This document shows positions 1 through 44,013 of a stretch of 64,000 bases of DNA, one piece after another. Each line of letters opens with the position of its first letter. Position 1 is the stretch's first letter. This DNA is from Candidatus Pullichristensenella avicola. GTDB taxonomy: Bacteria > Bacillota > Clostridia > Christensenellales > Aristaeellaceae. A program made the position numbers and the translations under genes. The stretch is taken from NCBI GenBank assembly GCA_018711655.1, contig DVIA01000043.1, positions 14,130 through 78,129 of the forward strand, given 5' to 3'. The notes beneath the pieces are model-generated. The model was given only the letters and a program-made list of their open reading frames with translations. It did not search any database and was not told the origin of the DNA.

Positions 1-3000
1 GCCCGGGTTGCCGAACTTGATGTTCAGGGCGGTGACCACCATGTTGCGGATGCGCTCAATGGCCACTTCCGCGGTGAGGCCATACTTGGCGAAAAGTTCG
101 TCCATTTTGCCCTGCGCCTCGCCGGTAAGCAGGCTGAGCAGGAACGTTGGCTCGGTAAGCATCTCCACGAAGGAATTGACAACGGAATTGGCCAGCGCGC
201 CAAAGACCGCCTTGGAGGTATCGACCGTTTCGTCGCTGAACTGCGCGGCCAGCAGATCAATGATCATTGCCTCCAGCGCCGCGGCGTCGCTCGCGTCTAT
301 CGCCTCATAAGCTTCTTTGAACTCGGCGTCATTGGCCAGCATTTCCTCCAGGCTCGCATAGCCCTTTGCCTTGACCAGGGCGTTAAGCAGCATACCGACG
401 CCCTCGGTATCGGCAAAGTACTCCATCAGGTCCGCAAAGATGGCCTCTATGCTCGCCTTGTCCTCTGCTTCGAGGATGTCGGCGCGAACGGTCAGCGTGT
501 TGGCGCGCAGATTCGAAGCGCCGAGATATGCAGTGTTGTTGTAACGAACATAGTTGATAGCGACGCCCACGCCCACGCCAGTCGTAGAATTTGTAGCGCT
601 GGCGTTAGCGGAGATGACGGCATCCGTATCCACCAGGGAAGTCACGGCCACATCGCCGTCGGCTTCGATCGCGGTGTCATCGCCGACGCGGGCCGAAGAA
701 TCGTTTTTGAGAATGTTGAGCGCAAGCGCTGCGGCAACTTGCACGCTGCCTTCCTGCGTCTGCGCGCGGGGGCGATCCTGCGCAAGCGTCGAAATGGCCG
801 CGGAGTTGACGTTGTTGGTTCCGATGCTGGCGGCAAGCGCGCTGGCGGTCTGTGTGTTCAGATCTGCGATCTGATCCGCCTGGCCCTCCTGATTCAGCGC
901 GCTGACGTTCGAGCCGCCCGCTCCGCTCTGGCCGGTAAGCGTTTCATCAATTTGATCCTGCGTGCCGGTCGAGGCCTGGCTCTCCTGCTGTTGCTGCTGT
1001 TGAAGCTCATCCGGCGTCTTGGGACCGGTGGGGCTTGTCGTGGGCGTAGCGCCCTTGGAACTGGCAATGACCTTTTGGTCAAAGCGACTGATGGATTGCG
1101 AATCCACCATTACATTGCGCGCCGAGGCGCTGCGCTCAAGGGCGGCAGCGGCAGAGTCGTTGAAGATACCGATGCCAAACGCGCCGCCGACGCCGACGCC
1201 CGCGCCCACGGCCGAGGCGTCCACCTGCATGGTGCGCTCCACCTGGCCATTGGCGGTAACAGACACATCGCCACTAGCGTCGATCTCCTCATTCGCGGTG
1301 CCAAAGTACGCCTGCGTATACACACCGCCGACGCCCAGGGCCAATACCGGCACTATGGACGTGCCGCCGGCCGCGCCGGCCGCGGCTTCAATGTGCTCCG
1401 TACCACTATAGGAAGCGTTTACCCACGCAGAGGTGAGCGGAAGATTTCCGAACGTCACGCCATCCTCGATGCGCGCGGTGACGTCTACACCAACCAGCCC
1501 GACCGCGATGCCGGCGCCAACGCCAGTGGAATTGGCCGTCATCTGGTTTGCGGGTTCGAAGGGAATAACGATGCCGCCAAGAGTAATGCTGCGGCGCTCG
1601 CGCTTTCCGGAGGCGTCGCCTACCGTGACGTAGCGACCCGTGCCGGTGGAATCCACGCCCACCTGGCCGCCGTTAATCGTATAGGAAGCGCCCTTGCCCA
1701 CCAGCGCATTGTTGATCGCCGTGGCCAAATGCACGGAAATCGCGCCGCCCAGACCAAAGTCTGCAGTCGAGGGAACATGGCCGGCCTTGATGATCACGCT
1801 GGATCCCGTGTGCCCCATGTCGGCGTCTACAAACAGACTTTGGGCGGTAATTGCGCCGCCAGTGATTTCGGCCACATTGTTGTTGTTGAAATAGGAAACG
1901 CCAACAGCCGTGCCGATCGCCTTCTGCGGCGCATCCTGGGGCGTCAGGCCCGTCACGGGGTCAATCGGAGGCGTTCTGTACAGCGAAGCGTCGGCGCGCA
2001 GTTCCGCGTAGGCTTCGCCACGGGCGAACACATCCACTGCGCCGGCAGCCTGAATATCGCCAACGGTGGCGATGCGGGCGGCGTTATCGTTGTCGATATA
2101 TGCCAGCGAGAAAGCGCCTGCGAACTGCTTCCCGGGCTTCTGCGGCTTATCGACCACCTGAACCGCCTGGTCGAGGAAGCCCTGGATGCCCGTAGCGCCG
2201 CTGATCAGATTGCGCAGCGCTCCGGCGATATCCGTCTTGATGCCAAGCAGCTTCTTGACCACGCCGATGGCTTTCGTCGTCGAAATTGCGCCGGATGCCT
2301 CCGCGTCGGCGGGGATGTTGACCGTCACCGTATTGGCATGCACGCGGGAAGTGGAATCCAGGCGGATGTCGCCCGCGAGCGCCAGAATGCTGGCAGAATC
2401 AAGCACCTCAACAGACGTATTGTTCTGAATAAACGTTCCGGCAATGTACACGCCCGTTGCCGGCTTCGTCGCCAGCGTCTTGGCGGGCTTGCCCGTCGAG
2501 AAGGAACCGGTGGTCACCGCCGCATTGGCGATCAGGTCCACGCTGCCATCCGCTTCGATTCGCGCGTTGTCCTTCACCGTCACATGCGTATCCACCAGCG
2601 CCACGGCAAGGGAAATCGCAAATTTCGGCACGCCGCCCACGGTATCGGCCGTGATGCTGGTATCGGAATAAGCATCCAGGTGCGCGTTGGAGCCCGCCTG
2701 AATCAGCGCGTCGCCGGCGACTGTAACGGTCGCTTCACCAATCGCAACGCCCACAGCCACGGGGATGACCACGCTGGCCACGCCGTTGGTGGTATTGACG
2801 AGAATATCCAGTTCGCTGCCAATGCGCACGGCGCCTTCAGCGATGATCTCGCCCAGAACATCGATGGTCGCGTAGCCCATCTTCAGAACGAAGGGCTGCA
2901 GTTCGAAGTCGGCAGGAAGGATGCCGCCGGGCAGATCCGGAATGGGGAGATAGCCCTCGCTCAGGGCAAGGCTGGCAAGGATGTCCACCGACTCGGCCGC

Positions 3001-5850
3001 TTCAAGCCTGGCGTTTTCGCCGATCGTGATGCGGCGATCGCTCTCCGCCTCGTACAGACCGACCTCGAGGCTCATGTCGTCCTCGCCTTCGGAGAGATCG
3101 TCGTCAACGATGGACAGGGAACCTTCGATCACGACGTCGTCCGTGCCGACGGCCTGCAGAAGGATGTTCTTGCCGGTCACTTCCCCATTGACCTGAATGC
3201 GCTTGCCGGTAACGAGCACGTTCATGCCCGCGGCCAACAGACGATCAATGGTGATCTCGCCGTCATCGCCAGCATCGTATACGATATTGGTGAACAACAG
3301 ACCATCGTCCGGAATCGTCAATTCGGAAACGAAGTCCAGCACCTCGTAGGGATTGACGCCCACCAGTTCCGTCAGCGGCAGGCCGTCCGGACCCAGCACG
3401 GGCAGGCCGGCGTCATCCAGTACCGGAACTTCCTGGTAGGACTCATACTTGGTAACAAGCTCGGTGATCTCATAATTGGTGAACGGAAGCGCCTCGCCCG
3501 AAAGCGCCTCGCCTTCCAGGCGGATGGTGCGCTTGTTCTCCAGGGCGTCGGTAAAGGCCTCGATGCCAAGCGCCGCAATTTTAAACTGCTTCTCAAAACT
3601 CAGCGTCAGCGCGTCGCCGGCGATGTCGCCCAGGAAGCTCAGTTCCGCAAGCGCCTCAATGGTCACTTCAACAGAATCGGCGTCCATCTGCGCGGTGATG
3701 CGCTCGGCCTCGTCGATTCCATCGTTGAGCTTGCCGGTGATGTGCAGACGGTCGAAGCCGTCGTTGCCCAGCACTTCGGTGGCAATGCCGCCGATGGTGG
3801 AGAAGGCCGCGGTGGTATCGACGGTAATGACATCGTCGCCCAAACCACCATCCAGACTAAAGTTTGTTTTCTGATATTCGGTGGCGCCGGCGCCGGCAAT
3901 ATAATCCGTAAGGAACTGCACGACTTCCTGCCCGAGCGAGAGCGTGCGAGCGCCGGAAATGTTGATGCGGTCGTTGCCTTCGCCGCCAAGAATGCTCACG
4001 TCTGCCGCGCCGATGTCTACGCCAAAGCCGTATTGCAGCGTCAGGGGCGCATTCGGGTCGCTGCCGATAACCGGCGTGCCAGGCGCCAGATCGGTCGAAT
4101 CCACAAGCGTGAAGTCCAGCGTGTCGTTGCCCAGGCCGAGGTTGATGTTGACCTTGAGCGGCTCCGCATCCAGGGCGGCGTCGATGACCATATCGTCGAT
4201 GCTGTCGAGCAGGTCGAGCATCGTTTCCTTCAAGCCAGCAGGCAGGTCCTGAATGCTCTCGACACTGGTAATTCCCTCAAAGGCCGTCTGCCAGCCTTCC
4301 TGCAGGTCGATACCAAATTCGAGGCTCGGATTCTTCTCCGTGCGGACACTCACGCGGTCGTCGCCCTTGCCCGTGTCAACCGTGACCGAGCCGGTAACGT
4401 TGCTTACGTTCATGTCCACAACGTCGTCCTGCGTCGTGCCATAATAGGTAACGCTCTGAGCGCCCTCGACGTTGACCAGGCCGCGCGTGGAAAGATAGAG
4501 ACCCGCAAGCACAACGTCAAGGCCGTCGAAGTCGATGTTGATGTCGCCCTCAACCTGCGCGCCGCCATCGCCTTCAGCGGTGAAGGAGCCATCCTCGGCG
4601 ATCGCGTCTTCGGCGACGATATTGATCTGTATCTGGCTCTGCTGCTCTTTGTTCAGCCCCAGGATCTCCGCAATCAGATCAGCAAGGGGCGAACCGCTGC
4701 CCGAATCATTGCTGATGTTCAGGCCGCCCTGGTAGATGCCGTCGGAAACGACGATGGTCGCCGTTTTTACAGCCTGCTGCTCATCCGGAGATTCATACAG
4801 GCTCTTGATATATGTAAGAGCGCTCTGCATCGCGTTGGTGATGGCGTTGTTCTCAGCATCGTTGCTGAAGGTGATATCCGCGCCGATCTCCTTAATGTAC
4901 GTGCTGCCCGCCGGAATGGCATAGGCTTCCACGGTGTCATCCTGGCCCACGGGCGGTTCATCGCCAGCGGCCAGAATCTGGGCGCCCTCCGGCAGGATGG
5001 GCGCGTTGTCGCCGGTAAGCTGATAAGCGGCCTCGAGCGCGCTCATATCCGGAATAACGACTCCGGTCTGTTCCTGGGTATCGCCTTCGCCGGCCGTTTC
5101 TCCTTCTTCGCCGGAGGTCTCGCCCTCGGACGTTCCTTCGCCCGGCGTTCCCTCTTCGCCGGTCTCCTCGGAAACTTCGCCCTCGTCCGGAATCAGCGTC
5201 TCTTCAATTTTGCCCTCTTCATCCTCCGAACCGGTTTCGCCGCCGGCTTCCTCGCCGGAGGTTTCGCCCTCGGACGTTTCCTCGCCCGGCCTTCCCTCTT
5301 CGCCGGTCTCCTCGGAAACTTCGCCCTCGTCCGGAATCAGCGTCTCTTCTTCTTCGGAAGAAGTTTCTCCCTCATCAGAGACTTCGGTCTTTTCCTCTTG
5401 ATTTCCCGGCACTCCGTCTACATTTTCAGCGCCCTGCTGCGATCCGGTCTGCGCGCCATCCAACGCGCCCGCATCGTCGTTTCCGCTGACAGAAGCGCCA
5501 TCAGGAATACTGCTCGACTCGGAGGAGCCGCCCGCAACGTTGCCGCCATCTCCGGATTCGCTTCCCGCGCCAGGCGCAGAATATCCGGCAGAGGCACCCT
5601 GCACAACATTCGCGTATGCAGCGGCCACAGGCGGACTCTTTGCCGCGGCGGACGTTCCGCCGGCATTTCCCTGCGACGCGGCGACTTCGCCGGTCGCCGA
5701 AGCCGAAACTGGCGGCGCAGAACTTTCCTCGGCCGTTGCGAACACCGCGCTGGCAAACAGCGCGAGCATCATCACCAAGCAAAGGATGCTGACGCCGTTC
5801 TTGGTCAGCCTACGGAAATCGCGCCTCTTTTTCTCAATCAGCTTCTTCAT
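1..5850 (-). CDS. giant secreted/cell-surface repeat protein; N-terminus in window, C-terminus runs off the left edge (at least 1950 aa)
   Basis: Absent from the supplied ORF track because there is no stop inside the window. On the reverse strand, GGGGAGG-7nt-ATG gives a start at 5850. My translation begins MKKLIEKKRRDFRRLTKNGVSILCLVMMLALFASAVFATAEE (basic N-region plus hydrophobic segment, i.e. signal peptide or anchor). Eight spot translations further along (codons starting at 4380, 4152, 4020, 3864, 3780, 1230, 1020, 480) and the final 20 codons (60..1) are all in phase with this start and protein-like; I did not scan every codon for stops. Contents: an acidic E/G/T/S tandem, dispersed GxG(N/D)Dx(I/L/V) motifs, G/A/V-rich strands (MQVDASAVGAGVGVGGAFGIGIFNDSAAAA), a QQQQQQ linker and a helical tail (...IERIRNMVVTALNIKFGNPG at the window edge). 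Confidence 0.85.
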   Translation of the reverse strand, partial: MKKLIEKKRRDFRRLTKNGVSILCLVMMLALFASAVFATAEESSAPPVSASATGEVAASQGNAGGTSAAAKSPPVAAAYANVVQGASAGYSAPGAGSESGDGGNVAGGSSESSSIPDGASVSGNDDAGALDGAQTGSQQGAENVDGVPGNQEEKTEVSDEGETSSEEEETLIPDEGEVSEETGEEGRPGEETSEGETSGEEAGGETGSEDEEGKIEETLIPDEGEVSEETGEEGTPGEGTSEGETSGEEGETAGEGDTQEQTGVVIPDMSALEAAYQLTGDNAPILPEGAQILAAGDEPPVGQDDTVEAYAIPAGSTYIKEIGADITFSNDAENNAITNAMQSALTYIKSLYESPDEQQAVKTATIVVSDGIYQGGLNISNDSGSGSPLADLIAEILGLNKEQQSQIQINIVAEDAIAEDGSFTAEGDGGAQVEGDINIDFDGLDVVLAGLYLSTRGLVNVEGAQSVTYYGTTQDDVVDMNVSNVTGSVTVDTGKGDDRVSVRTEKNPSLEFGIDLQEGWQTAFEGITSVESIQDLPAGLKETMLDLLDSIDDMVIDAALDAEPLKVNINLGLGNDTLDFTLVDSTDLAPGTPVIGSDPNAPLTLQYGFGVDIGAADVSILGGEGNDRINISGARTLSLGQEVVQFLTDYIAGAGATEYQKTNFSLDGGLGDDVITVDTTAAFSTIGGIATEVLGNDGFDRLHITGKLNDGIDEAERITAQMDADSVEVTIEALAELSFLGDIAGDALTLSFEKQFKIAALGIEAFTDALENKRTIRLEGEALSGEALPFTNYEITELVTKYESYQEVPVLDDAGLPVLGPDGLPLTELVGVNPYEVLDFVSELTIPDDGLLFTNIVYDAGDDGEITIDRLLAAGMNVLVTGKRIQVNGEVTGKNILLQAVGTDDVVIEGSLSIVDDDLSEGEDDMSLEVGLYEAESDRRITIGENARLEAAESVDILASLALSEGYLPIPDLPGGILPADFELQPFVLKMGYATIDVLGEIIAEGAVRIGSELDILVNTTNGVASVVIPVAVGVAIGEATVTVAGDALIQAGSNAHLDAYSDTSITADTVGGVPKFAISLAVALVDTHVTVKDNARIEADGSVDLIANAAVTTGSFSTGKPAKTLATKPATGVYIAGTFIQNNTSVEVLDSASILALAGDIRLDSTSRVHANTVTVNIPADAEASGAISTTKAIGVVKKLLGIKTDIAGALRNLISGATGIQGFLDQAVQVVDKPQKPGKQFAGAFSLAYIDNDNAARIATVGDIQAAGAVDVFARGEAYAELRADASLYRTPPIDPVTGLTPQDAPQKAIGTAVGVSYFNNNNVAEITGGAITAQSLFVDADMGHTGSSVIIKAGHVPSTADFGLGGAISVHLATAINNALVGKGASYTINGGQVGVDSTGTGRYVTVGDASGKRERRSITLGGIVIPFEPANQMTANSTGVGAGIAVGLVGVDVTARIEDGVTFGNLPLTSAWVNASYSGTEHIEAAAGAAGGTSIVPVLALGVGGVYTQAYFGTANEEIDASGDVSVTANGQVERTMQVDASAVGAGVGVGGAFGIGIFNDSAAAALERSASARNVMVDSQSISRFDQKVIASSKGATPTTSPTGPKTPDELQQQQQQESQASTGTQDQIDETLTGQSGAGGSNVSALNQEGQADQIADLNTQTASALAASIGTNNVNSAAISTLAQDRPRAQTQEGSVQVAAALALNILKNDSSARVGDDTAIEADGDVAVTSLVDTDAVISANASATNSTTGVGVGVAINYVRYNNTAYLGASNLRANTLTVRADILEAEDKASIEAIFADLMEYFADTEGVGMLLNALVKAKGYASLEEMLANDAEFKEAYEAIDASDAAALEAMIIDLLAAQFSDETVDTSKAVFGALANSVVNSFVEMLTEPTFLLSLLTGEAQGKMDELFAKYGLTAEVAIERIRNMVVTALNIKFGNPG
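5109..5349. repeat. 144-nt (48-aa) tandem duplication inside the giant CDS (acidic linker)
   Basis: The 97-nt blocks 5109-5205 and 5253-5349 are near-identical, with a 144-nt offset. They encode EETLIPDEGEVSEETGEEG(R/T)PGE..TSEGETSGEE twice. Confidence 0.9.
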
Positions 5851-5901
5851 TGCAATACCTCCCCGAGCAATCTCGAGCGGAATATTTTCTGACGATGGCA
5901 A

Positions 5902-7317
5902 CTATTCTACGATCTGTTCAGCGTCGATCTGTTCGCCCTCCAGCAGTCGTTGGCTCTCGTAATACTGCGCAAGCTGCCAGAGTATGTTGGTGGCGGCGTC
6001 TTTGAGCGTTTGCTCATCGCCGCTGGTAAGCGTCATTTCCATATCGTCGAGCGCGCTGTCATAATCCAGCAGATTCACATAACACACGCCGCGATTGTAG
6101 TAACAGAACTGTGTGAGATAGCCCTGCTCGATGGAACTGGTGAAATCCGCCACCGCTTCCTCATAACGCCCCAACGAGAGCAGGCTTACGCCGCGGTAGT
6201 AGTAGCTGCCCACCAGTTCGGGCCCGTTTTCAATGGCCAGCGTGAGATATTCGACAGCCTCTTCATACTGGCCCAGCGACATCGCGGAGGCTCCCATTTG
6301 CTGATAGACGGAGCCGAGCGAAGCGCTAGCGTCCGGAAGCGCCAGAAGGCGTTCGCCATAGGCGATCACAGCCTCGTAGTTTTCGGAAATATACGAGCAC
6401 GTCACAAGCTGTTCCAGCGTCGCCGCCTCAGAATAGCCGCGCTCGAGGGCGCCTTCAAAATCCGCAATCGCCAGTTCATAGTTGGCAAGCTGCATCTCGC
6501 AGCAACCGCGCAGGAAGTAAGCGGTCGCCAGCAAGGCTTCCATGGAGGCGTTCTGCCCGTCGGCGTCCGCCTCGGAGGACGTTTCAGAGACTTCGGTCTG
6601 TTCGTGTTCGTCAATATAGGCGGTGAAGCCGTCGCGCGCGGTTTCGTATTCGCCCGCGAGCAGCTGGCAGCGCAGCGCCTCCAGGCGATAAACGCTCTCC
6701 TGCGGGAACTGCGTGTAAATCGCCTCATAGCACTCCGCGGCTTCGGCGTAACGCCCCAGCACTTCGTAGATCTGCGCAAGATCCTGACGGACGGCCGCGT
6801 CGTCGGGCACGAGGGCAAGATAACTTTCCAGGTCCCGCGCCGCCGGCAGATAGGACTGCTGAGCCAGTTCGATCTGCGCCCGCAAAAGCAACGCCTGCGA
6901 AGATTCCGGGTCGTATTCCAGCGCGCTTTCAAGCGCGGCGAGCGCATCGTCGTAATTCTGCATCAGCATATACAGCGAAGCCTTGCGCAGCATCAGGTCG
7001 GCCATGAGCGCGCCGTCGCTTTCATCCGCAAGGGCGGAACACTCGTCAAGATAGCCGAGCGCCTCCTCGTAGTTGCCCTGGCCGATGGCGATGTTGGCAA
7101 GCTGGTAGTAATCATCGTATGTCTGCGGTTCGTCGATCTCGTCCTGAAGAATAGAGTAAATCCTCGAAAGCGGATCCTCTTCGGCAAGCACAGCGGCGAA
7201 TTGAGAAATCGCGTCAAACTGCGTCACGACCGCCGTGCACAAAAGCACGATGGCGATGACCAGAGAAACCACGCGCAAAATGGGCTTTTTGCCTTTTTCA
7301 TTTCGTCCTGCTTTCAT
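5902..7317 (-). CDS. membrane-anchored TPR-repeat protein
   Basis: Track ORF is 5902..7335. I prefer the ATG at 7317 (GGGAGG-8nt-ATG). The N-terminus MKAGRNEKGKKPILRVVSLVIAIVLLCTAVV is basic plus one TM helix. The rest is made of 34-aa-type A/Y/L/E repeats (e.g. YYYRGVSLLSLGRYEEAVADF, GQGNYEEALGYLDECSAL) typical of TPR. It lies 51 nt upstream of the giant CDS on the same strand. Confidence 0.8.
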   Translation of the reverse strand: MKAGRNEKGKKPILRVVSLVIAIVLLCTAVVTQFDAISQFAAVLAEEDPLSRIYSILQDEIDEPQTYDDYYQLANIAIGQGNYEEALGYLDECSALADESDGALMADLMLRKASLYMLMQNYDDALAALESALEYDPESSQALLLRAQIELAQQSYLPAARDLESYLALVPDDAAVRQDLAQIYEVLGRYAEAAECYEAIYTQFPQESVYRLEALRCQLLAGEYETARDGFTAYIDEHEQTEVSETSSEADADGQNASMEALLATAYFLRGCCEMQLANYELAIADFEGALERGYSEAATLEQLVTCSYISENYEAVIAYGERLLALPDASASLGSVYQQMGASAMSLGQYEEAVEYLTLAIENGPELVGSYYYRGVSLLSLGRYEEAVADFTSSIEQGYLTQFCYYNRGVCYVNLLDYDSALDDMEMTLTSGDEQTLKDAATNILWQLAQYYESQRLLEGEQIDAEQIVE

Positions 7318-7443
7318 GTGCCGTTCCTCCCACATACCAAAGTCTGTTTTTGTCGGGTTTCCGTATATTTTAGACTTCGGTCTTTTCCTGTAAAGCGCTC
7401 CATCTGCGCAACGCTCACAGATATATTTCCTTTCGTTGGATCG

Positions 7444-7459
7444 CGTTTATCGATAAACG
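7444..7459. promoter_or_regulatory. perfect 16-nt palindrome CGTTTATCGATAAACG in the 5' leader of the TPR/giant-protein operon (candidate operator)
   Basis: Self-complementarity checked base by base. AACGATA recurs at 7456-7462 and 7469-7475. The site lies roughly 50-60 nt downstream of the predicted transcription start. Confidence 0.4.
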
Positions 7460-7513
7460 ATAAAAATTAACGATACACACATTAAATTATATCATACACT
7501 ATTCTAGCATTAC

Positions 7514-7542
7514 ATTATATTCCAATTTCAGTCGCTTGTCAA
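7514..7542 (-). promoter_or_regulatory. consensus sigma-A promoter for the TPR/giant-protein operon
   Basis: Reverse strand reads TTGACA (7542-7537), a 17-nt spacer, then TATAAT (7519-7514). Both hexamers are perfect, in an AT-rich stretch upstream of the TPR gene. Confidence 0.7.
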
Positions 7543-7868
7543 GCGATTTTGGACGATATTTTAAGTTTTTTGTTGATTTCAGCGCTCTACATAACATTCG
7601 TAATCATTCCATAACTTTTGCATGGTGTACCCCGGCAAATCAGTCTGCCATCCCGTTTCCACCCTGTCGCCAGCGGCACACCTTCCCGCTCATCGCTGCG
7701 CCGGGCAATCACTTTCCTCTCCCGGCAGAGGAGCAAATGAAAACGCGGCCTTCCTCCTGCCTCTGTTTGGAGATATCCTGGAAAAAGGGCCGCGCATAAT
7801 ATATGTTCTATATGAGTTTCTACCTATTTATTATACATCCGCTGAACCGGCCTGTCTCATGGTCGCGG

Positions 7869-9005
7869 TCATTTCAGACCAGATTCTGTTTTCTGATCCT
7901 GCTCGCGCCGATTCACATCTTCCCGCAAAAGTCTGTATGCCGTGGCCGCCAACGGAACGCCCAGCAACATGCCGACAATGCCCAACACGGAACCTCCAAC
8001 CGTGATTGCCGCCAGCACCCACAGCGCCGGCAATTTCAGCGAGGCCCCAACCACGCGCGGATAGACCAAATTCCCCTCCAACTGCTGCAGAATTACAATG
8101 AACACCAGGAAAAAAGCCGCCTCGATCGGGGAAACCGTCATAATCATGATCGCGCCGACAATCGCGCCTATATATGCGCCGGCGATGGGGATCAGGGCCG
8201 TTGCACCCACAAGCGTACCGACCATCGTCGCATATGGGAAACCGAGCAGCAACATGCCCAGCATGCACAGGGAGCCGAGAATTATCGCCTCTATACACTG
8301 GCCGACGATATATCGATGGAAACAGTCGTCCATCACGCCAAGCACATACCGCACGCGCGCATGCCATGCTGGCCGCAGATATGTGCGCATCAGACGAGAC
8401 ATCTGCGCGCAAATGCGCTCCTTGCCGTAGAGCAGGTATACTGCAAACACCACCGCCATCACCAATGTGGTCGCGCCGGAAAACACGCCGGATACCGTGA
8501 CCACCACAGAGTTCATCAGCCCGCCGAAACCACCGCCCAGCCAATCGACAACGCGCGTTACGCCGTCCTGCCAGCCGGCGTCTACGCTTGTCAACTCCTC
8601 CGGCAGCAACTGGGCAATTTCCGGATAACGCATCAGTTCCGCATAACCTCGCTCCAAAAGCGCCGGCACGTCGTTGAGCAAAAGCTGCAGGCTTTTTATA
8701 AGTTCCGGGACAATCAGTAGAATTACCAGAGACACCAAGAGAAGAATCGTCAGGATGGAAGCAAACAGACATACGCCACGCCGCGTGCGCGCAGCAAAAC
8801 GACCGCCGCGGCGCGGAAAGTAATGCCTCTCATAAAACCGCATCATTCGGTTTACAAGGTAGGCGATTCCCGCGCCCAAAACCAGCGGCCACAGTCCGCT
8901 GAGGAATACGCCGAGCAGCCGCGCTACGCTTTCCCAATAATGCACGGCAAGATAAACAAGCACGATGGTAATTCCAACGCGCAGACAGGCTTTCCACTTC
9001 AACAT
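7869..9005 (-). CDS. AI-2E family transporter (PerM/UPF0118-type permease)
   Basis: Multiple hydrophobic segments and the C-terminal motif ILQQLEGNLVYPRVVGASLKLPALWVLAAITVGG characteristic of this family. I prefer the start at 9005 (AGAGGTG-5nt-ATG; MLKWKACLRVGITIVL); the track start 9044 is an alternative. Confidence 0.8.
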   Translation of the reverse strand: MLKWKACLRVGITIVLVYLAVHYWESVARLLGVFLSGLWPLVLGAGIAYLVNRMMRFYERHYFPRRGGRFAARTRRGVCLFASILTILLLVSLVILLIVPELIKSLQLLLNDVPALLERGYAELMRYPEIAQLLPEELTSVDAGWQDGVTRVVDWLGGGFGGLMNSVVVTVSGVFSGATTLVMAVVFAVYLLYGKERICAQMSRLMRTYLRPAWHARVRYVLGVMDDCFHRYIVGQCIEAIILGSLCMLGMLLLGFPYATMVGTLVGATALIPIAGAYIGAIVGAIMIMTVSPIEAAFFLVFIVILQQLEGNLVYPRVVGASLKLPALWVLAAITVGGSVLGIVGMLLGVPLAATAYRLLREDVNRREQDQKTESGLK

Positions 9006-9175
9006 CTGCTCACCTCTTTGCATTCCAGAGCGCCCATTCCCCACCTCATTCTAACAGGCGCATCCGACGCCGTCAAGCACGCAGGGTAAATTTCCAATCG
9101 GCTTCCACGCAGAACAGAACACAGTCTTTTTCGCATGCGGTCGCACATGCAATGTTATCTTCCCGCAAACACCCC

Positions 9176-9204
9176 TTGCAATTCCGCGGGAACTGTGCTA
9201 TACT
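9176..9204 (+). promoter_or_regulatory. promoter of the SRP RNA gene
   Basis: TTGCAA (9176-9181), a 17-nt spacer, then TATACT (9199-9204), preceded by TGc (extended -10). Confidence 0.65.
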
Positions 9205-9210
9205 ACCCAT

Positions 9211-9344
9211 GTTCCACGGGTGATGACGATCGGGTCCCGTGCGGCGTCATGCTGTGAATCGTGTCAGGGCCGGAAGGCAGCAGCACTAAACAGATGTTGG
9301 CGCGCGCCGCGGGGCATGCCTGATTCGAGTCCGTGGAATTTTTT
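9211..9344 (+). ncRNA. ffs: signal recognition particle RNA (4.5S/scRNA-type)
   Basis: GTCAGGGCCGGAAGGCAGCAGC (about 9263-9286) matches the universally conserved SRP domain IV (CAGGUCCGGAAGGAAGCAGC, GGAA tetraloop). The downstream CAGATG matches E. coli 4.5S. The terminal helix pairs TTCCACGG (9212-9219) with CCGTGGAA (9331-9338) and is followed by TTTTTT. It has its own promoter and no plausible ORF. Confidence 0.8.
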
Positions 9345-9402
9345 GTCGCGCATACTGGAAAATTCACATAAGATGTGATAAAATAGATTTATCTGTGCGG
9401 AG

Positions 9403-10479
9403 GTGGGCTTGTTGACAAACCGTTTGGAGGCGTTTCTTGGCGCCATGGCAGCCCACAGCCTGTCCGCGGCGTTGATCCACCGCCCGGAAAACATGCGCTA
9501 TCTGACCGGATATACCGGCGAAGGCTGCCTGTTTGTTTCCAGAGAAGTGCAGGCCATTCTCACCGATTTTCGCTACGTCGAACAGGTATCCCGGCAAGCG
9601 CCGTTCGTCTCTTGTGTGCGTACGCGAAATGGCGCGCGCCTGGAAGAACTGGTGCGCAATCTTGTGGATCGTTCCCACAGCGATACGCTGGCAGTGGAAA
9701 CGGATTACCTCAGCTACGACGCCTGTATGGCGCTGCAAAATGCATTGGGCGACGTTCGCATGCTTTCCCTGGAAGCGCTGCCCGAATCCATGCGGATCTG
9801 CAAGGACGCAAAGGAGATCGAGGCAATTTGCCGGTCCGCAGATATTGCCTGCCGCGCCTTCGAGGCGCTGCTGGGAAAACTGCGTCCGGGCATGACAGAG
9901 CGGGAAGTCGCCATGACGCTCAATTATGAAATGCTCCGTTTGGGCAGCGAGGGCGAAGCCTTTCCCACCATTGCCTGCACGGGCATCAACGGTTCGCTGC
10001 CCCACGCGGTTCCCGGCGAGCATCGGCTTGAAAAAGGCGAATTGCTGACATTGGATTTCGGCGCCACCTGCGACGGCTACCGCTCTGACATGACGCGCAC
10101 CGTCGCGATCGGCAAAGTTTCCGACAAACTCCGGTCTCTTTATCAGGTGGTATTGGACGCGCAGCTTCTGGCGCTTTCCGCCATTCACCCCGGCGCGGTA
10201 TGCGAAGAGATCGACGCGTTGGCGCGCGATTATATCCAGGCGCGCTATCCCGACGCTTTCGGCCACGCGCTAGGCCATGGCGTAGGGCTTTATATCCACG
10301 AACAGCCCCGGCTCGGCAAGGGCGACAGGACCATTTTACAGCCCGGTCATGTCGTTACGGTCGAACCCGGCGTATATATCTCCGGTCTCGGCGGCTGCCG
10401 GATCGAGGACATGGCGATCCTGACTTCGGTCGGTTTTGTGAATCCCATCAACGCGCCGAAGCATCTGATCGAGCTGTAA
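9403..10479 (+). CDS. pepP: Xaa-Pro aminopeptidase/dipeptidase (M24B family)
   Basis: Creatinase-like N-domain followed by the metal-ligand motifs HGVGLYIHEQP and EPGVYISGLGGCRIED. It occupies the conserved position directly upstream of efp. Confidence 0.85.
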   Translation: MGLLTNRLEAFLGAMAAHSLSAALIHRPENMRYLTGYTGEGCLFVSREVQAILTDFRYVEQVSRQAPFVSCVRTRNGARLEELVRNLVDRSHSDTLAVETDYLSYDACMALQNALGDVRMLSLEALPESMRICKDAKEIEAICRSADIACRAFEALLGKLRPGMTEREVAMTLNYEMLRLGSEGEAFPTIACTGINGSLPHAVPGEHRLEKGELLTLDFGATCDGYRSDMTRTVAIGKVSDKLRSLYQVVLDAQLLALSAIHPGAVCEEIDALARDYIQARYPDAFGHALGHGVGLYIHEQPRLGKGDRTILQPGHVVTVEPGVYISGLGGCRIEDMAILTSVGFVNPINAPKHLIEL

Positions 10480-10514
10480 ATTCCTTACATTCTATTTGAG
10501 GAGGCACATTCCCC

Positions 10515-11075
10515 ATGATCAACGCAAGCGACTTCCGAAACGGCGTCACCATTGAGATGGACAACGGCATTTGGACCATCGTCAGTTTCCTGCACGTCAA
10601 GCCTGGCAAGGGCGCGGCGTTCGTGCGCACGAAGCTGAAGAACATCGTCACCGGCGCCGTCATCGAGCGCACCTTCAACCCCACCGACAAGATGGCCAAG
10701 GCGCATATCGAGACGAAGGAAATGCAGTATCTCTACAACGATGGGGATATGTACTACTTTATGGACCTGGAGACCTACGATCAGCTTCCCCTGACGCACG
10801 ACCAGGTGGCGGACGCCATTCCTTTTGTAAAGGAAAACACCAACGTCACCGTGCGCTTTTTCAAGGGCGCGCCCTTCAGCGTTGAAGCGCCGAACTTTGT
10901 CGAACTGGAAGTGACCGCCACCGAACCCGGCTTCAAGGGCGACACCGCCTCCAACACCACCAAGCCCGCGACGGTGGAAACCGGCTTCACCCTGCAGGTG
11001 CCGCTGTTTATCGAAATCGGCGACAAGCTCAAAATCGACACCCGCAACGGCGGCGAATACCTCGGCCGCGCATAA
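10515..11075 (+). CDS. efp: translation elongation factor P
   Basis: [43 protein letters not shown] is a near-canonical EF-P N-terminus including the KPGKG loop; 186 aa. Confidence 0.97.
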
Positions 11076-11165
11076 GCGGCGCAAAGAACGCACAATATGG
11101 ACAGGGCGGCACAATTTGCCGCCCGGTTTTCTGCAAAAAAAGCCCGCATGGGCGGAGGTGACGGC

Positions 11166-11684
11166 ATGGCAAACCTGAACGATAAGATCGGCTTTATTCG
11201 CGGGTTGATCGAGGGCGCACAACTCGACCCGAACGATCCAAGCGCCAAGCTCTATGCGGCGCTTGCCGATGCGCTGGAGGGCATCGCCGGCGAATTGGAC
11301 GATCTTCGCGACGGAATGAGCGAGCTCAACGACTTTGTCGAGAGCATTGACGAGGATCTGGAAGACCTCGAAGCCGCGGTGGATGGCGGCGAGCACGATG
11401 GCCGCATTGCGGAGGATGACGAAGATTACGACGAAATGGACGATCTTGCAGACGATCTCCCGAAAACAGACTCTGGTTTGCATGTGCTCCGTTCGGACGC
11501 GAGCGGCAACTGCCAGGCGCTGGCGGGCAGCATCTGCTCTGAATGCGGCAAGCTGTTTTTCGTTCCCGTAGACGAATTGCGGGCTGAAAACGAACTCTAT
11601 ATGTGCCCGCACTGTCACAAACCCGTGGATTTTGCACCGCTCACGCCGGAGAACGCCCCGATCGCCAAGCCCTACCGCGAATAG
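11166..11684 (+). CDS. acidic coiled-coil protein with C-terminal zinc ribbon (CD1247 N-terminal-domain-like; conserved efp neighbour in Clostridia)
   Basis: GGAGGTGACGGC-ATG gives a start at 11166 (the track ORF starts earlier, at 11097). MANLNDKIGFIRGLIEG..., a D/E-rich centre, then CSECGK...CPHCHK at the C-terminus. Confidence 0.7.
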   Translation: MANLNDKIGFIRGLIEGAQLDPNDPSAKLYAALADALEGIAGELDDLRDGMSELNDFVESIDEDLEDLEAAVDGGEHDGRIAEDDEDYDEMDDLADDLPKTDSGLHVLRSDASGNCQALAGSICSECGKLFFVPVDELRAENELYMCPHCHKPVDFAPLTPENAPIAKPYRE

Positions 11685-11706
11685 CGGTGACCGATCAAAC
11701 CATCCA

Positions 11707-11738
11707 GAGACCGCCCCTCGGCGGTCTCGTGTTTTTTG
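11707..11738 (+). terminator. rho-independent terminator of the pepP-efp operon
   Basis: GAGACCGCC-cctc-GGCGGTCTC followed by GTGTTTTTT. Confidence 0.8.
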
Positions 11739-12164
11739 GTGCCGGGTCTGTGATCTGATATTATTGTGCTGCCCGCCTCGCTTACGGGCGCGCCCGCCGT
11801 CCTGCGATGGCGTGTGCGTGGGCGCATTTTCATCGGAATTTCCCTTAAACCGACCATATTCTTTTTCATTCTCTATCCTTCAGTTCCACAACACTTCCGA
11901 ATCAGAACGCTGCGACCAGGGCGCTGTCCTTTCCGGCATTTTCTATCCATGCCGCCCGTTTCGCCGAAACCGCACATGTGTCCAAGGGCGCTTTTGCCTT
12001 CTGAAAATGGAGTCTGTAACGCGACAGCCTTTCTATGCGCAAAAGAGACTTTGGTCTTTACTATAGCAATGGCTGCCTCGCTCAAAGGCGGCCATTGCGG
12101 AAAGGTAAGCGTTTCTACCTATTATATATAGTTATACGCACCGCTGCTATTTTGACGCCAAACC

Positions 12165-12860
12165 CTACTCCAGCGTCCGCAGCGCCTCGACCAGGGCCGT
12201 TTTCTTCTCTGTCTTTGCGTCCTTCATTTTGATAATGCGGCCAGGGATCCCGGCGACGACGGCGTTTTCCGGTACGTCTGCCACAACGACGCACCCCGCG
12301 GCGATCACGGCGCCCCGGCCAATATGCACGCCCTCGAGCACGACGGCGTTTGCGCCGACCAGCACGTCGTCCTCCACCACCACCGGCTTGGCGCTTGCCG
12401 GCTCGACAACGCCTGCGAGCACTGCGCCCGCGCCGATATGGCAACGCCTGCCCACCGTAGCACGCCCGCCGAGCACCGCGCCCATGTCGATCATGCTGTC
12501 CTCGCCCACCACGGCGCCAATATTGAGGATGGCGCCCATCATAATCACAGCACGGTCGCCAATCTCGACATGGTCGCGGATCAGCGCGCCCGGTTCAATG
12601 CGCGCGTTGATGTTCCTGACATCCAGAAGCGGCACGGCGCTGTTGCGGCGATCCGCTTCGACGACGACATCTTCAATGGCGCCGGCATTGCGCTCCAGCG
12701 CCGCACGGATCGCCGCCCACTCGCCAAATACGATTCTATCCCCCATGCCAAAGACGCGACATCCGGGAAATTCTACTTCCGCAGCGGCCTTGACGTACGC
12801 CTTCACAGGCGTTGTTTTTTTAGCATCGTGGATAAAGCGGATGATCTCTTCCGCGTTCAT
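12165..12860 (-). CDS. dapH: 2,3,4,5-tetrahydropyridine-2,6-dicarboxylate N-acetyltransferase (hexapeptide-repeat)
   Basis: N-terminus [23 protein letters not shown] plus a left-handed beta-helix repeat region ([38 protein letters not shown]), as in DapH/YkuQ. It is the last gene of a dapA-dapB-dapH operon. Confidence 0.85.
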
Positions 12861-12878
12861 GGCCTTACCTCCTTGCTC

Positions 12879-13610
12879 CTACGAATTTGCGCGCAACCCC
12901 AGCACGTCGTCCACGCCGTACAGTCCCGGCGCAGCACCCACGGCAAAATCCAGCGCGCGCACCGCTCCCGCGGCAAATATCCGGCGGCTGGCAGCGCTGT
13001 GGCGGAACTCCAGAGTTTCATCCGCGCCGAGAAACAGCGCGCGGTGCTCCCCGGCGACGCTTCCCCCGCGCAGGGCGTGCACGCCGATTTCCTTTCCGCG
13101 CGCTCCGGTGAAACCCTCGCGGCCGTATATGCGCGCATAGTCGCCTTCAGGGTCGATGGCGTTAAGCAGCGCCTTGGCAGTGCCGCTGGGCGCGTCGGCT
13201 TTGCCGCCGTGGTGTGCCTCGACGATTTCCGCGTCAAAGCCGTTCTGCAAAAGCAGCGGCCCAATCTGTCGCAGCACTTTGCGCAGCACCGCCACGCCGA
13301 GGGAGAAATTCGCGTCGTAGACAATCGGCACACAGGCCGCCGCCTCGCGAATGCGCGCCATCTGCGCCGCCGAGAGGCCGGTTGTGCCGACGACGGCGGC
13401 CGCGCCGGCGCCCAGCGCGCGCGTCAGCGTACCCTCGAGATTTCCCGGGAAAGAAAAATCAATCAGCGCATCCGGCTTGCCCGGCACATCCGCCGGGCTT
13501 TCAAACAGCCCCGGCGAAACCACGCCGAGAATTTCAATATCTGCGCGCGGCGCGAGCATTTCTTCGATCATCCTGCCCATTCGCCCGTGGCCGACAAGGA
13601 TTACGTTCAT
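12879..13610 (-). CDS. dapB: 4-hydroxy-tetrahydrodipicolinate reductase
   Basis: GGAGGAAGT-ATG at 13610. MNVILVGHGRMGRMI (Rossmann motif) and the DapB signature EIVEAHHGGKADAPSGTA. Confidence 0.93.
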   Translation of the reverse strand: MNVILVGHGRMGRMIEEMLAPRADIEILGVVSPGLFESPADVPGKPDALIDFSFPGNLEGTLTRALGAGAAAVVGTTGLSAAQMARIREAAACVPIVYDANFSLGVAVLRKVLRQIGPLLLQNGFDAEIVEAHHGGKADAPSGTAKALLNAIDPEGDYARIYGREGFTGARGKEIGVHALRGGSVAGEHRALFLGADETLEFRHSAASRRIFAAGAVRALDFAVGAAPGLYGVDDVLGLRANS

Positions 13611-14482
13611 ACTTCCTCCAAAATACGCAGCGCGTCCTTGAGTTTTTCGAGATTTTTCTCTTCCATCTCGCACAGCGGCAGACGGCAGGGCCCGACGTCC
13701 ATGCCCATCAGGTTCATCGCTTCCTTGACCGGAATCGGGTTGACTTCAACAAACAGCGCGTTGATCAATTCCAGATAGCGAAGCTGCATTTCCCGCGCGC
13801 GCGCCGTATCGCCGGCAAGATAGGCAGCCACCATTTCGTGCGTCTGCCGCGGGCAGATATTGGCCCATACGCTGATCACGCCCACACCGCCCAGCGAGAG
13901 AATCGGCACGGTCATGTCGTCGTTGCCGGAAAGCAGGGCAAATTCCTCGTTGAGAAGGCGGGCGATCTTCGCCGTATAGGCGATATTCCCGCTGGCCTCC
14001 TTGATGGCGCGCACATTGGGCAACCTTGAAAGCGCTTCAACGCACTCCACGGAAAGCGCGCAGCCCGTGCGCCCGGGCACATTGTAAAGGATGATGGGCA
14101 GATCGACCGCTTCGGCAACGGTGGCAAAGTGGCGGTACATCCCCTTCTGGTTGGTTTTATTGTAGTAAGGCGTAATAAGCAGGAGCCCGTCCGCGCCCAA
14201 ATCGCGAAATTTGCGGCTCTTGGCAAGCGAGGTTTCCGTACAATTGGAACCGCCGCCGGCGATCACCGGAATGCGGCCCGCAATCGCATCCACGCAGCAG
14301 CGCACGATGGCGGCGTCCTCCGCAGCGTCGGTCGTGCTCGACTCTCCTGTGGTGCCCAGCACAACCAGGCCGTCCGTGCCGTTTTCCACATGCCATTTGC
14401 AAAGTTCCTTCAGTTTTTCAAAATTGACGCTTCCATCCGCGTAAAATGGCGTCACCAGCGCCACATAGCTGCCTTCAAACAC
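13607..14482 (-). CDS. dapA: 4-hydroxy-tetrahydrodipicolinate synthase
   Basis: GAGGAGGCGATTGC-GTG gives a start at 14482; the 549-aa track ORF 13607..15256 is an over-extension. YVALVTPF, GTTGESSTT and IKEASGN (Schiff-base Lys context). A 4-nt overlap with dapB. Confidence 0.93.
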   Translation of the reverse strand: MFEGSYVALVTPFYADGSVNFEKLKELCKWHVENGTDGLVVLGTTGESSTTDAAEDAAIVRCCVDAIAGRIPVIAGGGSNCTETSLAKSRKFRDLGADGLLLITPYYNKTNQKGMYRHFATVAEAVDLPIILYNVPGRTGCALSVECVEALSRLPNVRAIKEASGNIAYTAKIARLLNEEFALLSGNDDMTVPILSLGGVGVISVWANICPRQTHEMVAAYLAGDTARAREMQLRYLELINALFVEVNPIPVKEAMNLMGMDVGPCRLPLCEMEEKNLEKLKDALRILEEV

Positions 14483-14509
14483 GCAATCGCCTCCTCGGAC
14501 GTTTTCTCC

Positions 14510-14538
14510 ATCATAGCAAACACAGAAAGAATTTGCAA
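14510..14538 (-). promoter_or_regulatory. dapA operon promoter
   Basis: Reverse strand reads TTGCAA (14538-14533), a 17-nt spacer, TGc, then TATGAT (14515-14510). Confidence 0.55.
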
Positions 14539-14557
14539 GTTTTCTCCCCAGCGCCGG

Positions 14558-14584
14558 CATTTGTTTTTTCAGCAAAAACAAATG
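14558..14584. promoter_or_regulatory. AT-rich perfect 11-bp inverted repeat (CATTTGTTTTT-5nt-AAAAACAAATG) in the divergent dapA/M20 control region
   Basis: Arms at 14558-14568 and 14574-14584 are exact reverse complements. The repeat sits just upstream of the dapA -35 box. Confidence 0.4.
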
Positions 14585-14698
14585 TATTTGTGCAAAGGAC
14601 GCATCGCGTGCAAAAATTGCAAATTTCCCACGGAGAACAAACGAACTTAAACTTGCCATGCTAAAATGGAAAATAGGAAAATGCTGGGAGGTTGCGCC

Positions 14699-15802
14699 AT
14701 GCTGGAAACCATCGTGCGGCATCGCCGCCATTTGCACGCGATTCCTGAACTGGGCTACAACCTGCCGGAAACGAGCGCTTATGTGCGCGCGCACCTGGAA
14801 CCGCTGGCTACGCGCCTGGAAAGCGTAGCAGAGAGCGGATTTCTGGCATTTTTCGATGCCGGCCGCGCTGAAAGTGTCGCCTTTCGCTGCGATATGGACG
14901 CTCTGCCCATCGAGGAACCGCAAACGTGCCCCTATGCCTCCAAACACCCGGGGCGCATGCACGCCTGTGGTCACGACGCGCACATGGCCATCCTGCTGAC
15001 GTTGGCGCAATGGCTGTCGAGCGCCGGAAAACCCCTGCCGCGCAACGTTCTTTTGATTTTCCAGCCCGCCGAGGAAAGCGGCGCCGGGGCGCGGCGCGTG
15101 GTCGAGAACGGCGCGCTTGAGCGCTACAACGTATCGCGCATTTTCGCGCTGCATGTGCAGCCCGGCCTTTGCGCGGGCACGATGGCTTCGCGCAGCGGCG
15201 CGATGATGGCCACTTCGTCCGAGGTGCGGATACGCCTGCGTGGAAAAGCCGCGCATGCCGCGCGCTGGCGCGAAGGGCGCGACGCCATGCTCGCCGGCGC
15301 GGAGGCCGTGCGCGCCGTATACGCGTTTGAACGCTCTCTGCCCGCGGAAATGCGGCGGTTAATCCGCCTGTGCGCCTTTCATGCGGGTGCCTCGACCAAC
15401 ATCGTTCCGGACTTCGCCGAGCTTTCCGGCACGGCGCGCGCCTTCAGCCGTGAGGATCACGCGCGCATCAAGGAGGGCATCGCCGCCGCCGTGCGCTCCG
15501 CCTGTGCGCCGCTCGGCGTTGAGACCAAAGTCGCTTTTTCAGAGGGCTATCCGCCCACGGTCAACGACCCCGCCCTCTATGCGCGTTTTTGCGCGCTCCT
15601 TGCCGATATGCCCCTAAAAACGCTTGACGAGCCCGACCTGACGACCGAAGATTTTTCCTTCTATCAGGAGCGTGTGCCCGGCGTTCTGTTCTACCTGGGA
15701 ACAGGCGGCGACGCGCCGTTGCACTCCCCCGCTTTCCAACTGGACGAAGGCGCTTTGCTGATCGGGCTTCAGGCCTTCCAGCGCCTTGCGCTTGCCAACT
15801 AG
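14699..15802 (+). CDS. M20-family amidohydrolase, probable N-acetyl-LL-diaminopimelate deacetylase
   Basis: GGGAGG-ATG at 14699. MLETIVRHRRHLHAIPELGY and MHACGHDAHMAILL are typical of the M20D/YkuR family. The function is assigned from its divergent adjacency to dapA-dapB-dapH (acetylase branch). Confidence 0.7.
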   Translation: MLETIVRHRRHLHAIPELGYNLPETSAYVRAHLEPLATRLESVAESGFLAFFDAGRAESVAFRCDMDALPIEEPQTCPYASKHPGRMHACGHDAHMAILLTLAQWLSSAGKPLPRNVLLIFQPAEESGAGARRVVENGALERYNVSRIFALHVQPGLCAGTMASRSGAMMATSSEVRIRLRGKAAHAARWREGRDAMLAGAEAVRAVYAFERSLPAEMRRLIRLCAFHAGASTNIVPDFAELSGTARAFSREDHARIKEGIAAAVRSACAPLGVETKVAFSEGYPPTVNDPALYARFCALLADMPLKTLDEPDLTTEDFSFYQERVPGVLFYLGTGGDAPLHSPAFQLDEGALLIGLQAFQRLALAN

Positions 15803-15817
15803 AAAGGAGGACCCGCC

Positions 15818-16810: not shown

Positions 16811-16819
16811 GAGGATACC

Positions 16820-41882: not shown

Positions 41883-41916
41883 AAAAATCCCGCTACCATC
41901 GAAAGGGCAGCGGGAA
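41883..41916 (-). terminator. rho-independent terminator after the WG-repeat gene
   Basis: Reverse strand reads TCCCGCTGCC-9nt-GGTAGCGGGA followed by TTTTT. Confidence 0.75.
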
Positions 41917-41925
41917 ATGATCGTA

Positions 41926-43689: not shown

Positions 43690-44013
43690 TTTCCTTCCTC
43701 CTGCAATTCAGGGGCGATTTGAACCGCCCCAGTCCCTAAGCTCCTCTCGCAACTTCCTTGAACGCATGCCAACAACCGACGGCGCACTCTTGTTCCGGCT
43801 CAGTTTCCCATTGCCCGCATACCCAACCCCTCCATTTACATTTCTTGCCAATATTGTACCCACCCCCCGAAAATTTCAGTAGAAATTCATATGTATTTAA
43901 TGTTAATGTGATGATTTCAGATAATTGTTTTGATGAAAAGCGTTTCGTGTATGTTTTGTTAAAAAACGCTTCATTTTGCCTCATGTCCAAGGAAAGAAAA
44001 TGATCGTCCTTAC

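Follow-up and report, generated by a model that had tools for sequence, protein, structure and literature searches.

Giant filamentous exoproteins are already known as a category. Fusobacterium necrophorum secretes its leukotoxin LktA through a type Vb two-partner system (Umana et al. 2019, bioRxiv 10.1101/534297). Metagenomic sequences contain very long, poorly annotated, beta-helix-rich proteins, including giants of mammalian-gut Clostridia that comprise 10–30 thousand amino acids (kaa) and have RCC1, Listeria-Bacteroides repeat, YG-repeat or dockerin domains as their building blocks (West-Roberts et al. 2023, bioRxiv 10.1101/2023.11.21.568195). Here, we describe a giant gene of Candidatus Pullichristensenella avicola, an uncultured member of the chicken-gut Clostridia known from metagenome-assembled genomes (MAGs) alone. 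The stretch that was analysed, referred to as the window, comprises 64,000 nucleotides of contig DVIA01000043.1 (GenBank assembly GCA_018711655.1, positions 14,130 to 78,129 of the forward strand). The gene occupies 1..5850 on the minus strand, leaves the window at its left edge, and is preceded by a gene for a tetratricopeptide repeat (TPR) protein. It belongs to a TPR-paired, Pfam-less and length-conserved family of ~8 kaa, which is undescribed; the named database matches of the giant protein are all annotated as "hypothetical protein", and literature searches on the name of the NCBIfam model matching its repeats and on giant Christensenellales proteins found no description of the family.

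Coding strand and full length of the giant gene

The minus-strand frame of the ATG at 5850 contains no stop codon across 5901..1, an open run of 1,967 codons with a chance of about 1e-27 in random sequence of matched composition. The initial annotation had placed the gene here from the sequence alone, and its start holds: the ribosome-binding site GGGGAGG (5858..5864, minus strand) can be read from the sequence with a 7-nt spacer to the ATG at 5850-5848, within the minus-strand sequence ...TCGGGGAGGTATTGCAATGAAGAAG..., and the frame is free of stops down to position 1. The plus frame over the same region is also open, with a single stop in 2,000 codons, and contains an open reading frame (ORF) of 1717 residues at 739..5892 (plus strand), which had been dismissed as an antisense shadow with an Arg-rich product. 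Codon usage, GC pattern, homology and strain substitutions all favour the minus strand. A codon-usage model trained on eight clear genes from the window favoured the minus strand (log-likelihood +519) over the plus-strand ORF (-52). The GC contents at the three codon positions of the minus strand (0.65/0.45/0.73) resemble those of other genes in the window, whereas those of the plus-strand ORF (0.73/0.46/0.65) mirror the gene pattern of the genome, and Arg accounts for 12.8% of the plus-strand product. The absence of TTA, CTA and TCA from the 1,950 sense codons of the giant gene in the window (0.15% in the other window genes) explains the open plus frame, which is codon-aligned with the sense gene.

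In an exhaustive HMMER search at E ≤ 1e-3, the minus-strand translation had homologues in 249 cluster representatives, and 54 of these also passed E ≤ 1e-30. We also compared two strain variants of the gene, designated L007 and L009, which differ by 69 substitutions, 44 of them at third codon positions of the sense frame. Read in the sense frame, 43 substitutions are synonymous and 26 non-synonymous; read in the antisense frame, 16 are synonymous and 53 non-synonymous. The minus-strand giant gene is real, and purifying selection acts on it. The plus-strand ORF was rejected as a gene by codon usage, GC pattern, codon avoidance and strain substitutions. A pseudogene might be suspected from a further assembly, L010, in which the giant gene is uncalled and its frame contains nine stops; the break there is a 100-N scaffold gap within the tandem repeat, and intact products are called in both L007 and L009. 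That the plus-strand ORF is the real gene, or that the region is non-coding or a pseudogene, has next to no chance of being correct.

The full length of the gene is apparent from other assemblies. In L007 (ENA ERZ27240439, a 293-kb contig), which is 99.9% nucleotide-identical to window positions 1-7317, the gene is the next after the TPR gene and encodes a product of 8,135 residues. The product comprises 8,128 residues in L009 (GCA_944350105.1) and is cut at 6,762 residues by the contig end in L008. The gene begins near position 157,411 of the L007 contig (k141_223635, reverse strand) and covers about 16,846-41,233 of the L009 contig (CALVOE010000066.1). The window therefore carries the first 1,950 codons (24%) of a gene of ~24.4 kb, and ~6,185 further residues lie past the window edge. 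The earlier length of at least 1950 residues was right in that the frame is open throughout, and it understated the protein fourfold. Beyond the window, we read the protein from L007 to residue 3,316. No Pfam families are recorded for the 8,135-residue product.

Although giant genes fill a noticeable part of a small genome, the annotation of MAGs regularly misses them or breaks them into pieces. In L043, a noisy long-read contig of P. avicola, ~6,850 codons of the gene are collinear with the homologues P0006, P0007 and P0008, and frameshifts break the gene at 1260-21827 into ~17 called genes (15 sense and two short antisense). A word-indexed protein search detected hardly any of the family (1, 7 and 19 matches) and returned no member longer than ~3 kaa; the family was revealed by the exhaustive HMMER search. 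Seven full-length homologues of 7,732-7,984 residues, with 29-50% identity, are collinear along their entire length save for roughly the last 100-200 residues; P0006 and P0008, for instance, align in a single high-scoring segment pair over 125-7715 with 39.5% identity. All of the full-length homologues open with a signal peptide followed by a lineage-specific low-complexity tandem spacer. The pattern [GE][FY]DR[LVT]H[LI]TG[KNV] alone retrieved 32 loci from GTDB species genomes, all of them MAGs, which span Pullichristensenella (best identity 77%), Aristaeellaceae, Christensenellales, Oscillospiraceae (Allofournierella, Gemmiger, Oscillibacter), Anaerovoracaceae and Hespellia. All of the features that mark the family are present in the window: signal peptide, spacer, signature-bearing module, ~48-residue beta repeats and an adjacent TPR gene. 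A distant relative, P0001 (2,595 residues, with a weak Flg_new_2 match), is encoded in L001, where 424-17069 holds P0001 and then another giant ORF, which exceeds 2,956 residues, with no TPR gene upstream.

Architecture of the giant protein

The N-terminus, MKKLIEKKRRDFRRLTKNGVSILCLVMMLALFASAVFA followed by TAEE, has the signal-peptide character initially ascribed to it: a hydrophobic core (Kyte-Doolittle 2.17) follows a basic n-region and precedes a cleavage site of the VFA type. We assign residues 1-38 (5737..5850, minus strand, as are all further features of the gene) to a putative Sec-type signal peptide with a hydrophobic segment at residues 18-36 and predicted cleavage between VFA and TAEE; alternatively, the segment may persist as an uncleaved signal anchor. 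Residues 39-289 (4984..5736) form an acidic, Ser/Gly/Ala/Glu-rich low-complexity spacer, of which the placement is conserved in the homologues and the sequence is lineage-specific. The spacer harbours the acidic 48-residue (144-nt) tandem noted at the outset, EETLIPDEGEVSEETGEEG..., which a repeat search located in two copies at residues 168-263 (5062..5349). The copies lie at 5206-5349 and 5062-5205, with 103 nt repeated at 95% identity and a period of 144 nt; Tandem Repeats Finder missed the tandem, which was recovered by a separate repeat search. Its copy number varies among the assemblies, with one copy in L009, two in the window and in L007, five in L008 and seven in L043. The tandem is probably a surface-exposed variable region and could serve as a strain-typing marker. 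The window part of the protein as a whole is strongly acidic, with 296 Asp and Glu against 98 Lys and Arg residues.

The spacer is followed by a family-specific N-terminal module (residues 290-1020, 2791..4983), mostly of beta structure with few helices. Local phmmer searches and alignment identified the module in ~40 relatives, in each of which it stands directly after the relative's own lineage-specific spacer. We modeled it with AlphaFold2 from a 20-sequence alignment (predicted local distance difference test score, pLDDT, 79.7; predicted template modelling score, pTM, 0.77; mostly beta). A PDB profile search with the module alignment gave no match, and Foldseek found nothing in the PDB below E 0.019 for the model; the weak matches are RTX beta-rolls (CyaA blocks, LipA and serralysins), the RTX domains scoring E 0.06-1.4 with a target template modelling (TM) score of at most 0.47. 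The sparse RTX-like motifs of the initial annotation correspond to five isolated GxGxD turns in the protein. Four of these, at residues 494, 572, 623 and 669, fit the RTX nonapeptide and fall in columns at least 90% conserved in the family: TGKGDDRVS (4357-4371), LGLGNDTLD (4123-4137), GGEGNDRIN (3970-3984) and GGLGDDVIT (3832-3846). The RTX-like stretch as defined by motif positions and conserved columns covers 3733..4371 and includes the conserved family signature LGNDGFDRLHITG (3733-3771). The signature GNDGFDRLHITG of the module is conserved as well.

The beta-repeat body begins with a G/A/V-rich block at residues 1021-1600 (1051..2790), which consists of divergent forms of a ~48-residue shaft repeat. 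AlphaFold2 predicts a unit of a long (~16), a short (~4) and a long (~16) strand with strand pLDDT of 94-98, and the long strands span 14-18 residues. A low-confidence linker with two predicted helices follows at residues ~1601-1700 (751..1050), with QQQQQQ at residues 1617-1622 (985-1002), so that the strand repeats and the poly-Q linker are both where the initial annotation had seen them. AlphaFold2 and homologue matches assign residues ~1701-1794 (469..750), including TGVGVGVAINYV, to further beta-repeat units; this segment is the one most often repeated in relatives, with up to 13 matched stretches per protein. Residues 1795-1946 (13..468) form a conserved helical insert (predicted helices with pLDDT 60-75), and the same block occurs in the homologue P0002. 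The helices had been read as a tail of the protein. The block is helical as proposed, but it is an internal insert because the repeats resume directly afterwards in L007.

Repeats of this kind have an established model. Residues 1901-3316, taken from L007, match NCBIfam NF012206 LktA_tand_53 in 10 stretches with 113.8 bits (E 3e-33), well above the curated cut-off of 50 bits for this 53-residue repeat model of a "tandem repeat-containing filamentous protein". The homologue P0006 also passes it, at 82.8 bits. The 1,950 residues in the window stay below the cut-off (16.6 bits, E 0.0067) with a weak match at residues ~1245-1280. The earlier view that the protein belongs to no named family thus stands for Pfam and fails for the repeat body, which passes LktA_tand_53 just downstream of the window. 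Self-BLAST over the first 3,316 residues found no internal repeats, and an iterated hidden Markov model (HMM) was needed. Starting from one unit, the HMM converged on the 48-residue consensus GAASGGSVGVGAAVAVNVVNNTTEASIGDGATITAGGDVTVSATSNTD and located 24 copies over residues 1240-3282. In each full-length homologue it found 25-34 copies, which start at ~800-1,300 and end at ~4,500-5,100.

Searches of the in-window protein against Pfam, PHROGs and PDB sequences gave no useful match (Pfam 0 families at E ≤ 1), and neither Pfam nor the PDB matched residues 1901-3316. For the model of the repeat region, Foldseek matches did not reach the threshold of E ≤ 0.001 in either the PDB (best E 1.3) or BFVD. 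The non-significant top PDB matches, FapC, VacA p55, EspP, SepA, UpaB and CsgA, are all parallel beta-solenoids, and we therefore infer a stacked, solenoid-like arrangement, in which the modeled repeats would form a long beta-solenoid shaft.

The C-termini were accessible through the homologues. P0010, P0011 and P0015 end with a hydrophobic or transmembrane helix and a basic tail, and P0004, P0006, P0007 and P0008 end with a globular domain. A wall anchor (LPxTG, SLH, CWB or dockerin) had been expected at the far end of the protein, and it is absent from every full-length homologue: no LPxTG-like motif occurs in the last 80 residues of the seven full-length and two N-terminally truncated homologues with preserved C-termini (P0019 and P0028), and no Pfam match to SLH, CWB, Cna-B, Ig-like, FIVAR or dockerin domains is on record for the homologues. 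By eye, the globular C-termini of P0004, P0006 and P0007 (L002 ~26,100-26,546) resemble the core of IS256/MULE transposases (...YVLV...G.L.L.....EAFW.E.L..L...G). Pfam returned MULE for one of the four globular sequences, P0004, with a weak E of 0.11, and the transposase identity is unproven.

The TPR partner and the genomic setting

The gene upstream of the giant gene (5902..7317, minus strand) encodes a protein of 471 residues with MKAGRNEKGKKPILR as its basic N-terminus, a single transmembrane helix and seven or more TPR units (Pfam TPR_1 at 2.2e-31). Its most likely start, ATG 7317, follows GGGAGGA 7 nt upstream, and the product is identical to HIS03421.1 of P. avicola and present on 11 contigs. 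The start at ATG 7335 given by the mechanical ORF is probably wrong; an exact look-up of this version found no match. Because of the positive-inside rule, the TPR domain is predicted to be extracellular, facing outward from the membrane.

The stop codon of the TPR gene (TAG 5904-5902) lies 51 nt from the ATG of the giant gene, as initially noted, and the proposed pairing could be followed across genomes. Orthologues with the same N-terminal helix immediately precede the giant gene in L002, L003 and L006, that of L002 sharing 42% identity over 414 residues (E 7.5e-85); in L004, the orthologue is nearby on the opposite strand and also has an N-terminal transmembrane helix. Among the 32 GTDB loci, 23 include upstream sequence and could be evaluated, and in 21 of these a TPR orthologue adjoins the giant gene (20 upstream on the same strand, one divergent). 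The two loci without it, L027 and L029, are both second paralogues, and their sister copies L028 and L015 have the TPR gene. These belong to two MAGs with two paralogous giant genes each (L027/L028 in JAXGXF01 and L015/L029 in CAYWOS01), one per pair being TPR-linked. No terminator-like site was found within 5700-8000. A perfect sigma-70 consensus, TTGACA-17-TATAAT (7514..7542, minus strand, 12/12), is located ~200 nt upstream of the TPR start and, as a consensus match, is likely the operon promoter. The conserved adjacency, the 51-nt gap without a terminator and the upstream promoter together show that the two-gene unit is real and conserved.

Just upstream of the TPR-giant pair, the lineages carry differing regulators, namely GerE/LuxR-type proteins (some with AAA and MalT-type TPR domains), TetR or a two-component system (L003 2290-3540; L004 4746-9828; L002 682-1377; L006 5777-8364), which suggests that control differs by lineage. 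The pair in the window has an AI-2E family transporter as its upstream neighbour.

The wider setting is one of housekeeping genes, with the AI-2E transporter, the signal recognition particle (SRP) RNA, a Xaa-Pro peptidase, elongation factor P (an exact match to HIS03424.1) and dapH/dapB/dapA. The GC content of the giant gene (0.60-0.615) matches that of the window (0.608), so that a recent horizontal acquisition is unlikely. Elsewhere in the window, a low-GC island at ~41,900-45,700 (43-49% against 61%) contains two minus-strand genes for wall-binding proteins, one at 41926-43689 with seven WG_beta_rep repeats and PG_binding_1 and the other at 44061-45611 with PG_binding_1; the island was probably acquired horizontally. 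The small SRP RNA (9228-9328, plus strand, 71 bits) and the class A RNase P RNA (50741-51083, minus strand, 282 bits) are ordinary housekeeping RNAs.

Proposed function and comparison with known systems

We consider it probable, though by no means assured, that the giant protein is a Sec-exported surface fibre with a tip module and a shaft of ~48-residue beta repeats, served by a dedicated TPR partner for assembly or docking. The giant gene would be co-transcribed with the TPR gene (5902-7317) and its product exported through Sec. With one ~48-residue rung per 0.48 nm, ~4,000 residues of repeats would give, as a rough estimate, a shaft of ~40 nm, that is, tens of nanometres. The fibre would stay on the cell, held in three of the homologues by the C-terminal transmembrane helix. 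The N-terminal module would stand at the distal end as an interacting tip, with Ca2+ probably stabilising it at the RTX-like turns, and the acidic spacer of strain-variable copy number would be disordered and exposed at the surface. The TPR protein, on the outer side of the membrane, may dock or fold the fibre on its exit from the Sec channel.

Several observations weigh against such a fibre. The predicted strands could form either a parallel solenoid or an antiparallel meander. Of the seven full-length homologues, four carry a globular domain at the C-terminus in place of a membrane anchor, and retention of the P. avicola protein itself on the cell is tentative. TPR proteins are generic, so that adjacency does not specify a role for the partner, and its predicted outward topology follows from the positive-inside rule only. 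Searches with the protein and the models brought up no domain of an adhesin, lectin, enzyme or toxin, and because of this the binding tip is suggested by position and analogy alone. These repeats occur in one characterised protein, LktA, which is released as a leukotoxin and is not an adhesin.

Some of the same evidence could point elsewhere. The repeats might assemble laterally, in an amyloid-like manner, into a sheath, an S-layer-like coat or a biofilm scaffold, with the TPR protein as an assembly factor. Their richness in small residues, the functional amyloids FapC and CsgA among the best, non-significant Foldseek matches, and the strict conservation of length at 7.7-8.1 kaa, which suits a ruler or scaffold, would be in line with such a structural component of the envelope or matrix. 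However, those Foldseek matches are at noise level (E 1.3 for FapC and 9.4 for CsgA, TM at most 0.17), neither a Pfam match nor csg or fap neighbours were found, one or two copies per genome would be unusual for a bulk matrix protein, and the excess of 296 acidic over 98 basic residues disfavours lateral packing without counter-ions; we regard a matrix role as unlikely. A released, LktA-like cytotoxin or effector acting on host or competitor cells is quite unlikely. It would account for the match to LktA_tand_53, given that LktA itself is a secreted leukotoxin, and for the lack of a C-terminal membrane anchor in four of the seven full-length homologues. LktA depends on the type Vb system, though, whereas here there is neither a two-partner secretion (TPS) domain nor a TpsB-like neighbour, the hosts are uncultured gut Clostridia that are not known pathogens, three homologues are membrane-anchored at the C-terminus, and no toxin domain was detected.

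The shaft could also present a variable C-terminal effector, as in polymorphic-toxin or contact-dependent delivery systems. The homologues indeed diverge only in about the last 100-200 residues, where some have a transmembrane helix and basic tail and others a globular domain, and that of P0004 has its weak MULE-transposase-like match (E 0.11). Yet known toxin or immunity domains were not detected, P0004, P0006 and P0007 have globular C-termini that look alike by eye where polymorphic toxins would be expected to vary, and no conserved small immunity-like gene follows downstream (the downstream gene is an opposite-strand gene in L003 and codes for a DUF1538 membrane protein in L004). Delivery of this kind appears improbable. 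Returning to the surface fibre, a broader proposal is tentative and may well not hold in all its parts: the proteins would constitute an undescribed 7.7-8.1-kaa class of gut Clostridia (Christensenellales, Oscillospiraceae, Anaerovoracaceae and some Lachnospiraceae), with unsolved folds of the module and shaft and with a dedicated TPR protein needed for assembly or retention, separate from the logic of type V, type I and sortase systems. The family offers a handle on a probably dominant surface structure of widespread uncultured gut Clostridia. It holds two structural units without an experimental structure, the N-terminal module and the LktA-type repeat, and the conserved TPR partner bears on the way in which monoderm bacteria deal with an export substrate of 8,000 residues that is rich in beta structure.

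Among the described systems, LktA shares with the giant protein the same tandem repeat of ~50 residues rich in Gly, Ala, Val and Ser, and both proteins are very large, secreted and poor in Cys. LktA comprises ~3.2 kaa and comes from a diderm bacterium, whereas the protein described here comprises 8.1 kaa and has a Sec signal, a different N-terminal module and a TPR partner. The TPS domain (Pfam Haemagg_act) has no match at E ≤ 1 in residues 1-1950, and no transporter of the TpsB/LktB type was found among the neighbours in the window or in L002-L006. FHA and CdiA, with their TpsA beta-helix, are likewise long, beta-rich exoproteins with degenerate Gly/Ser-rich repeats, and the last ~1,000 residues of P0006 appear FHA-like by eye. 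The rungs of FHA are built of short strands, in contrast to the predicted strands of 14-18 residues here; TpsB is absent, and Haemagg_act, Fil_haemagg and Fil_haemagg_2 of Pfam matched neither residues 1-1950 nor 1901-3316.

The RTX proteins CyaA, LipA and the serralysins resemble the N-terminal module in its four near-invariant turns of the GGxGxDxUx type and in the weak structural matches to their beta-rolls. Unlike the tandem nonapeptides of RTX proteins, those of the module are single and 36-78 residues apart, and the protein has an N-terminal Sec signal instead of the C-terminal signal of type I secretion systems (T1SS). Pfam HemolysinCabind has no match at E ≤ 1 in the in-window protein, and no T1SS genes were found in the 10 kb upstream. 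The metagenomic giants of Clostridia differ from the present family, which is without RCC1, Listeria-Bacteroides repeat, YG-repeat and dockerin domains. If it is cell-bound, the protein resembles the giant adhesins of Gram-positive bacteria (LPXTG MSCRAMM-type, Ebh and serine-rich repeat proteins) in its general plan of a repeat stalk of great length behind a signal peptide and a separate N-terminal module. It differs from them in that the stalk would consist of a wide-strand beta repeat and not of beads on a string, and in that the anchor, where one is visible among the homologues, is a C-terminal transmembrane helix; should the broader proposal made above hold, the TPR-giant pair would represent a new two-component surface-fibre system for monoderm bacteria.

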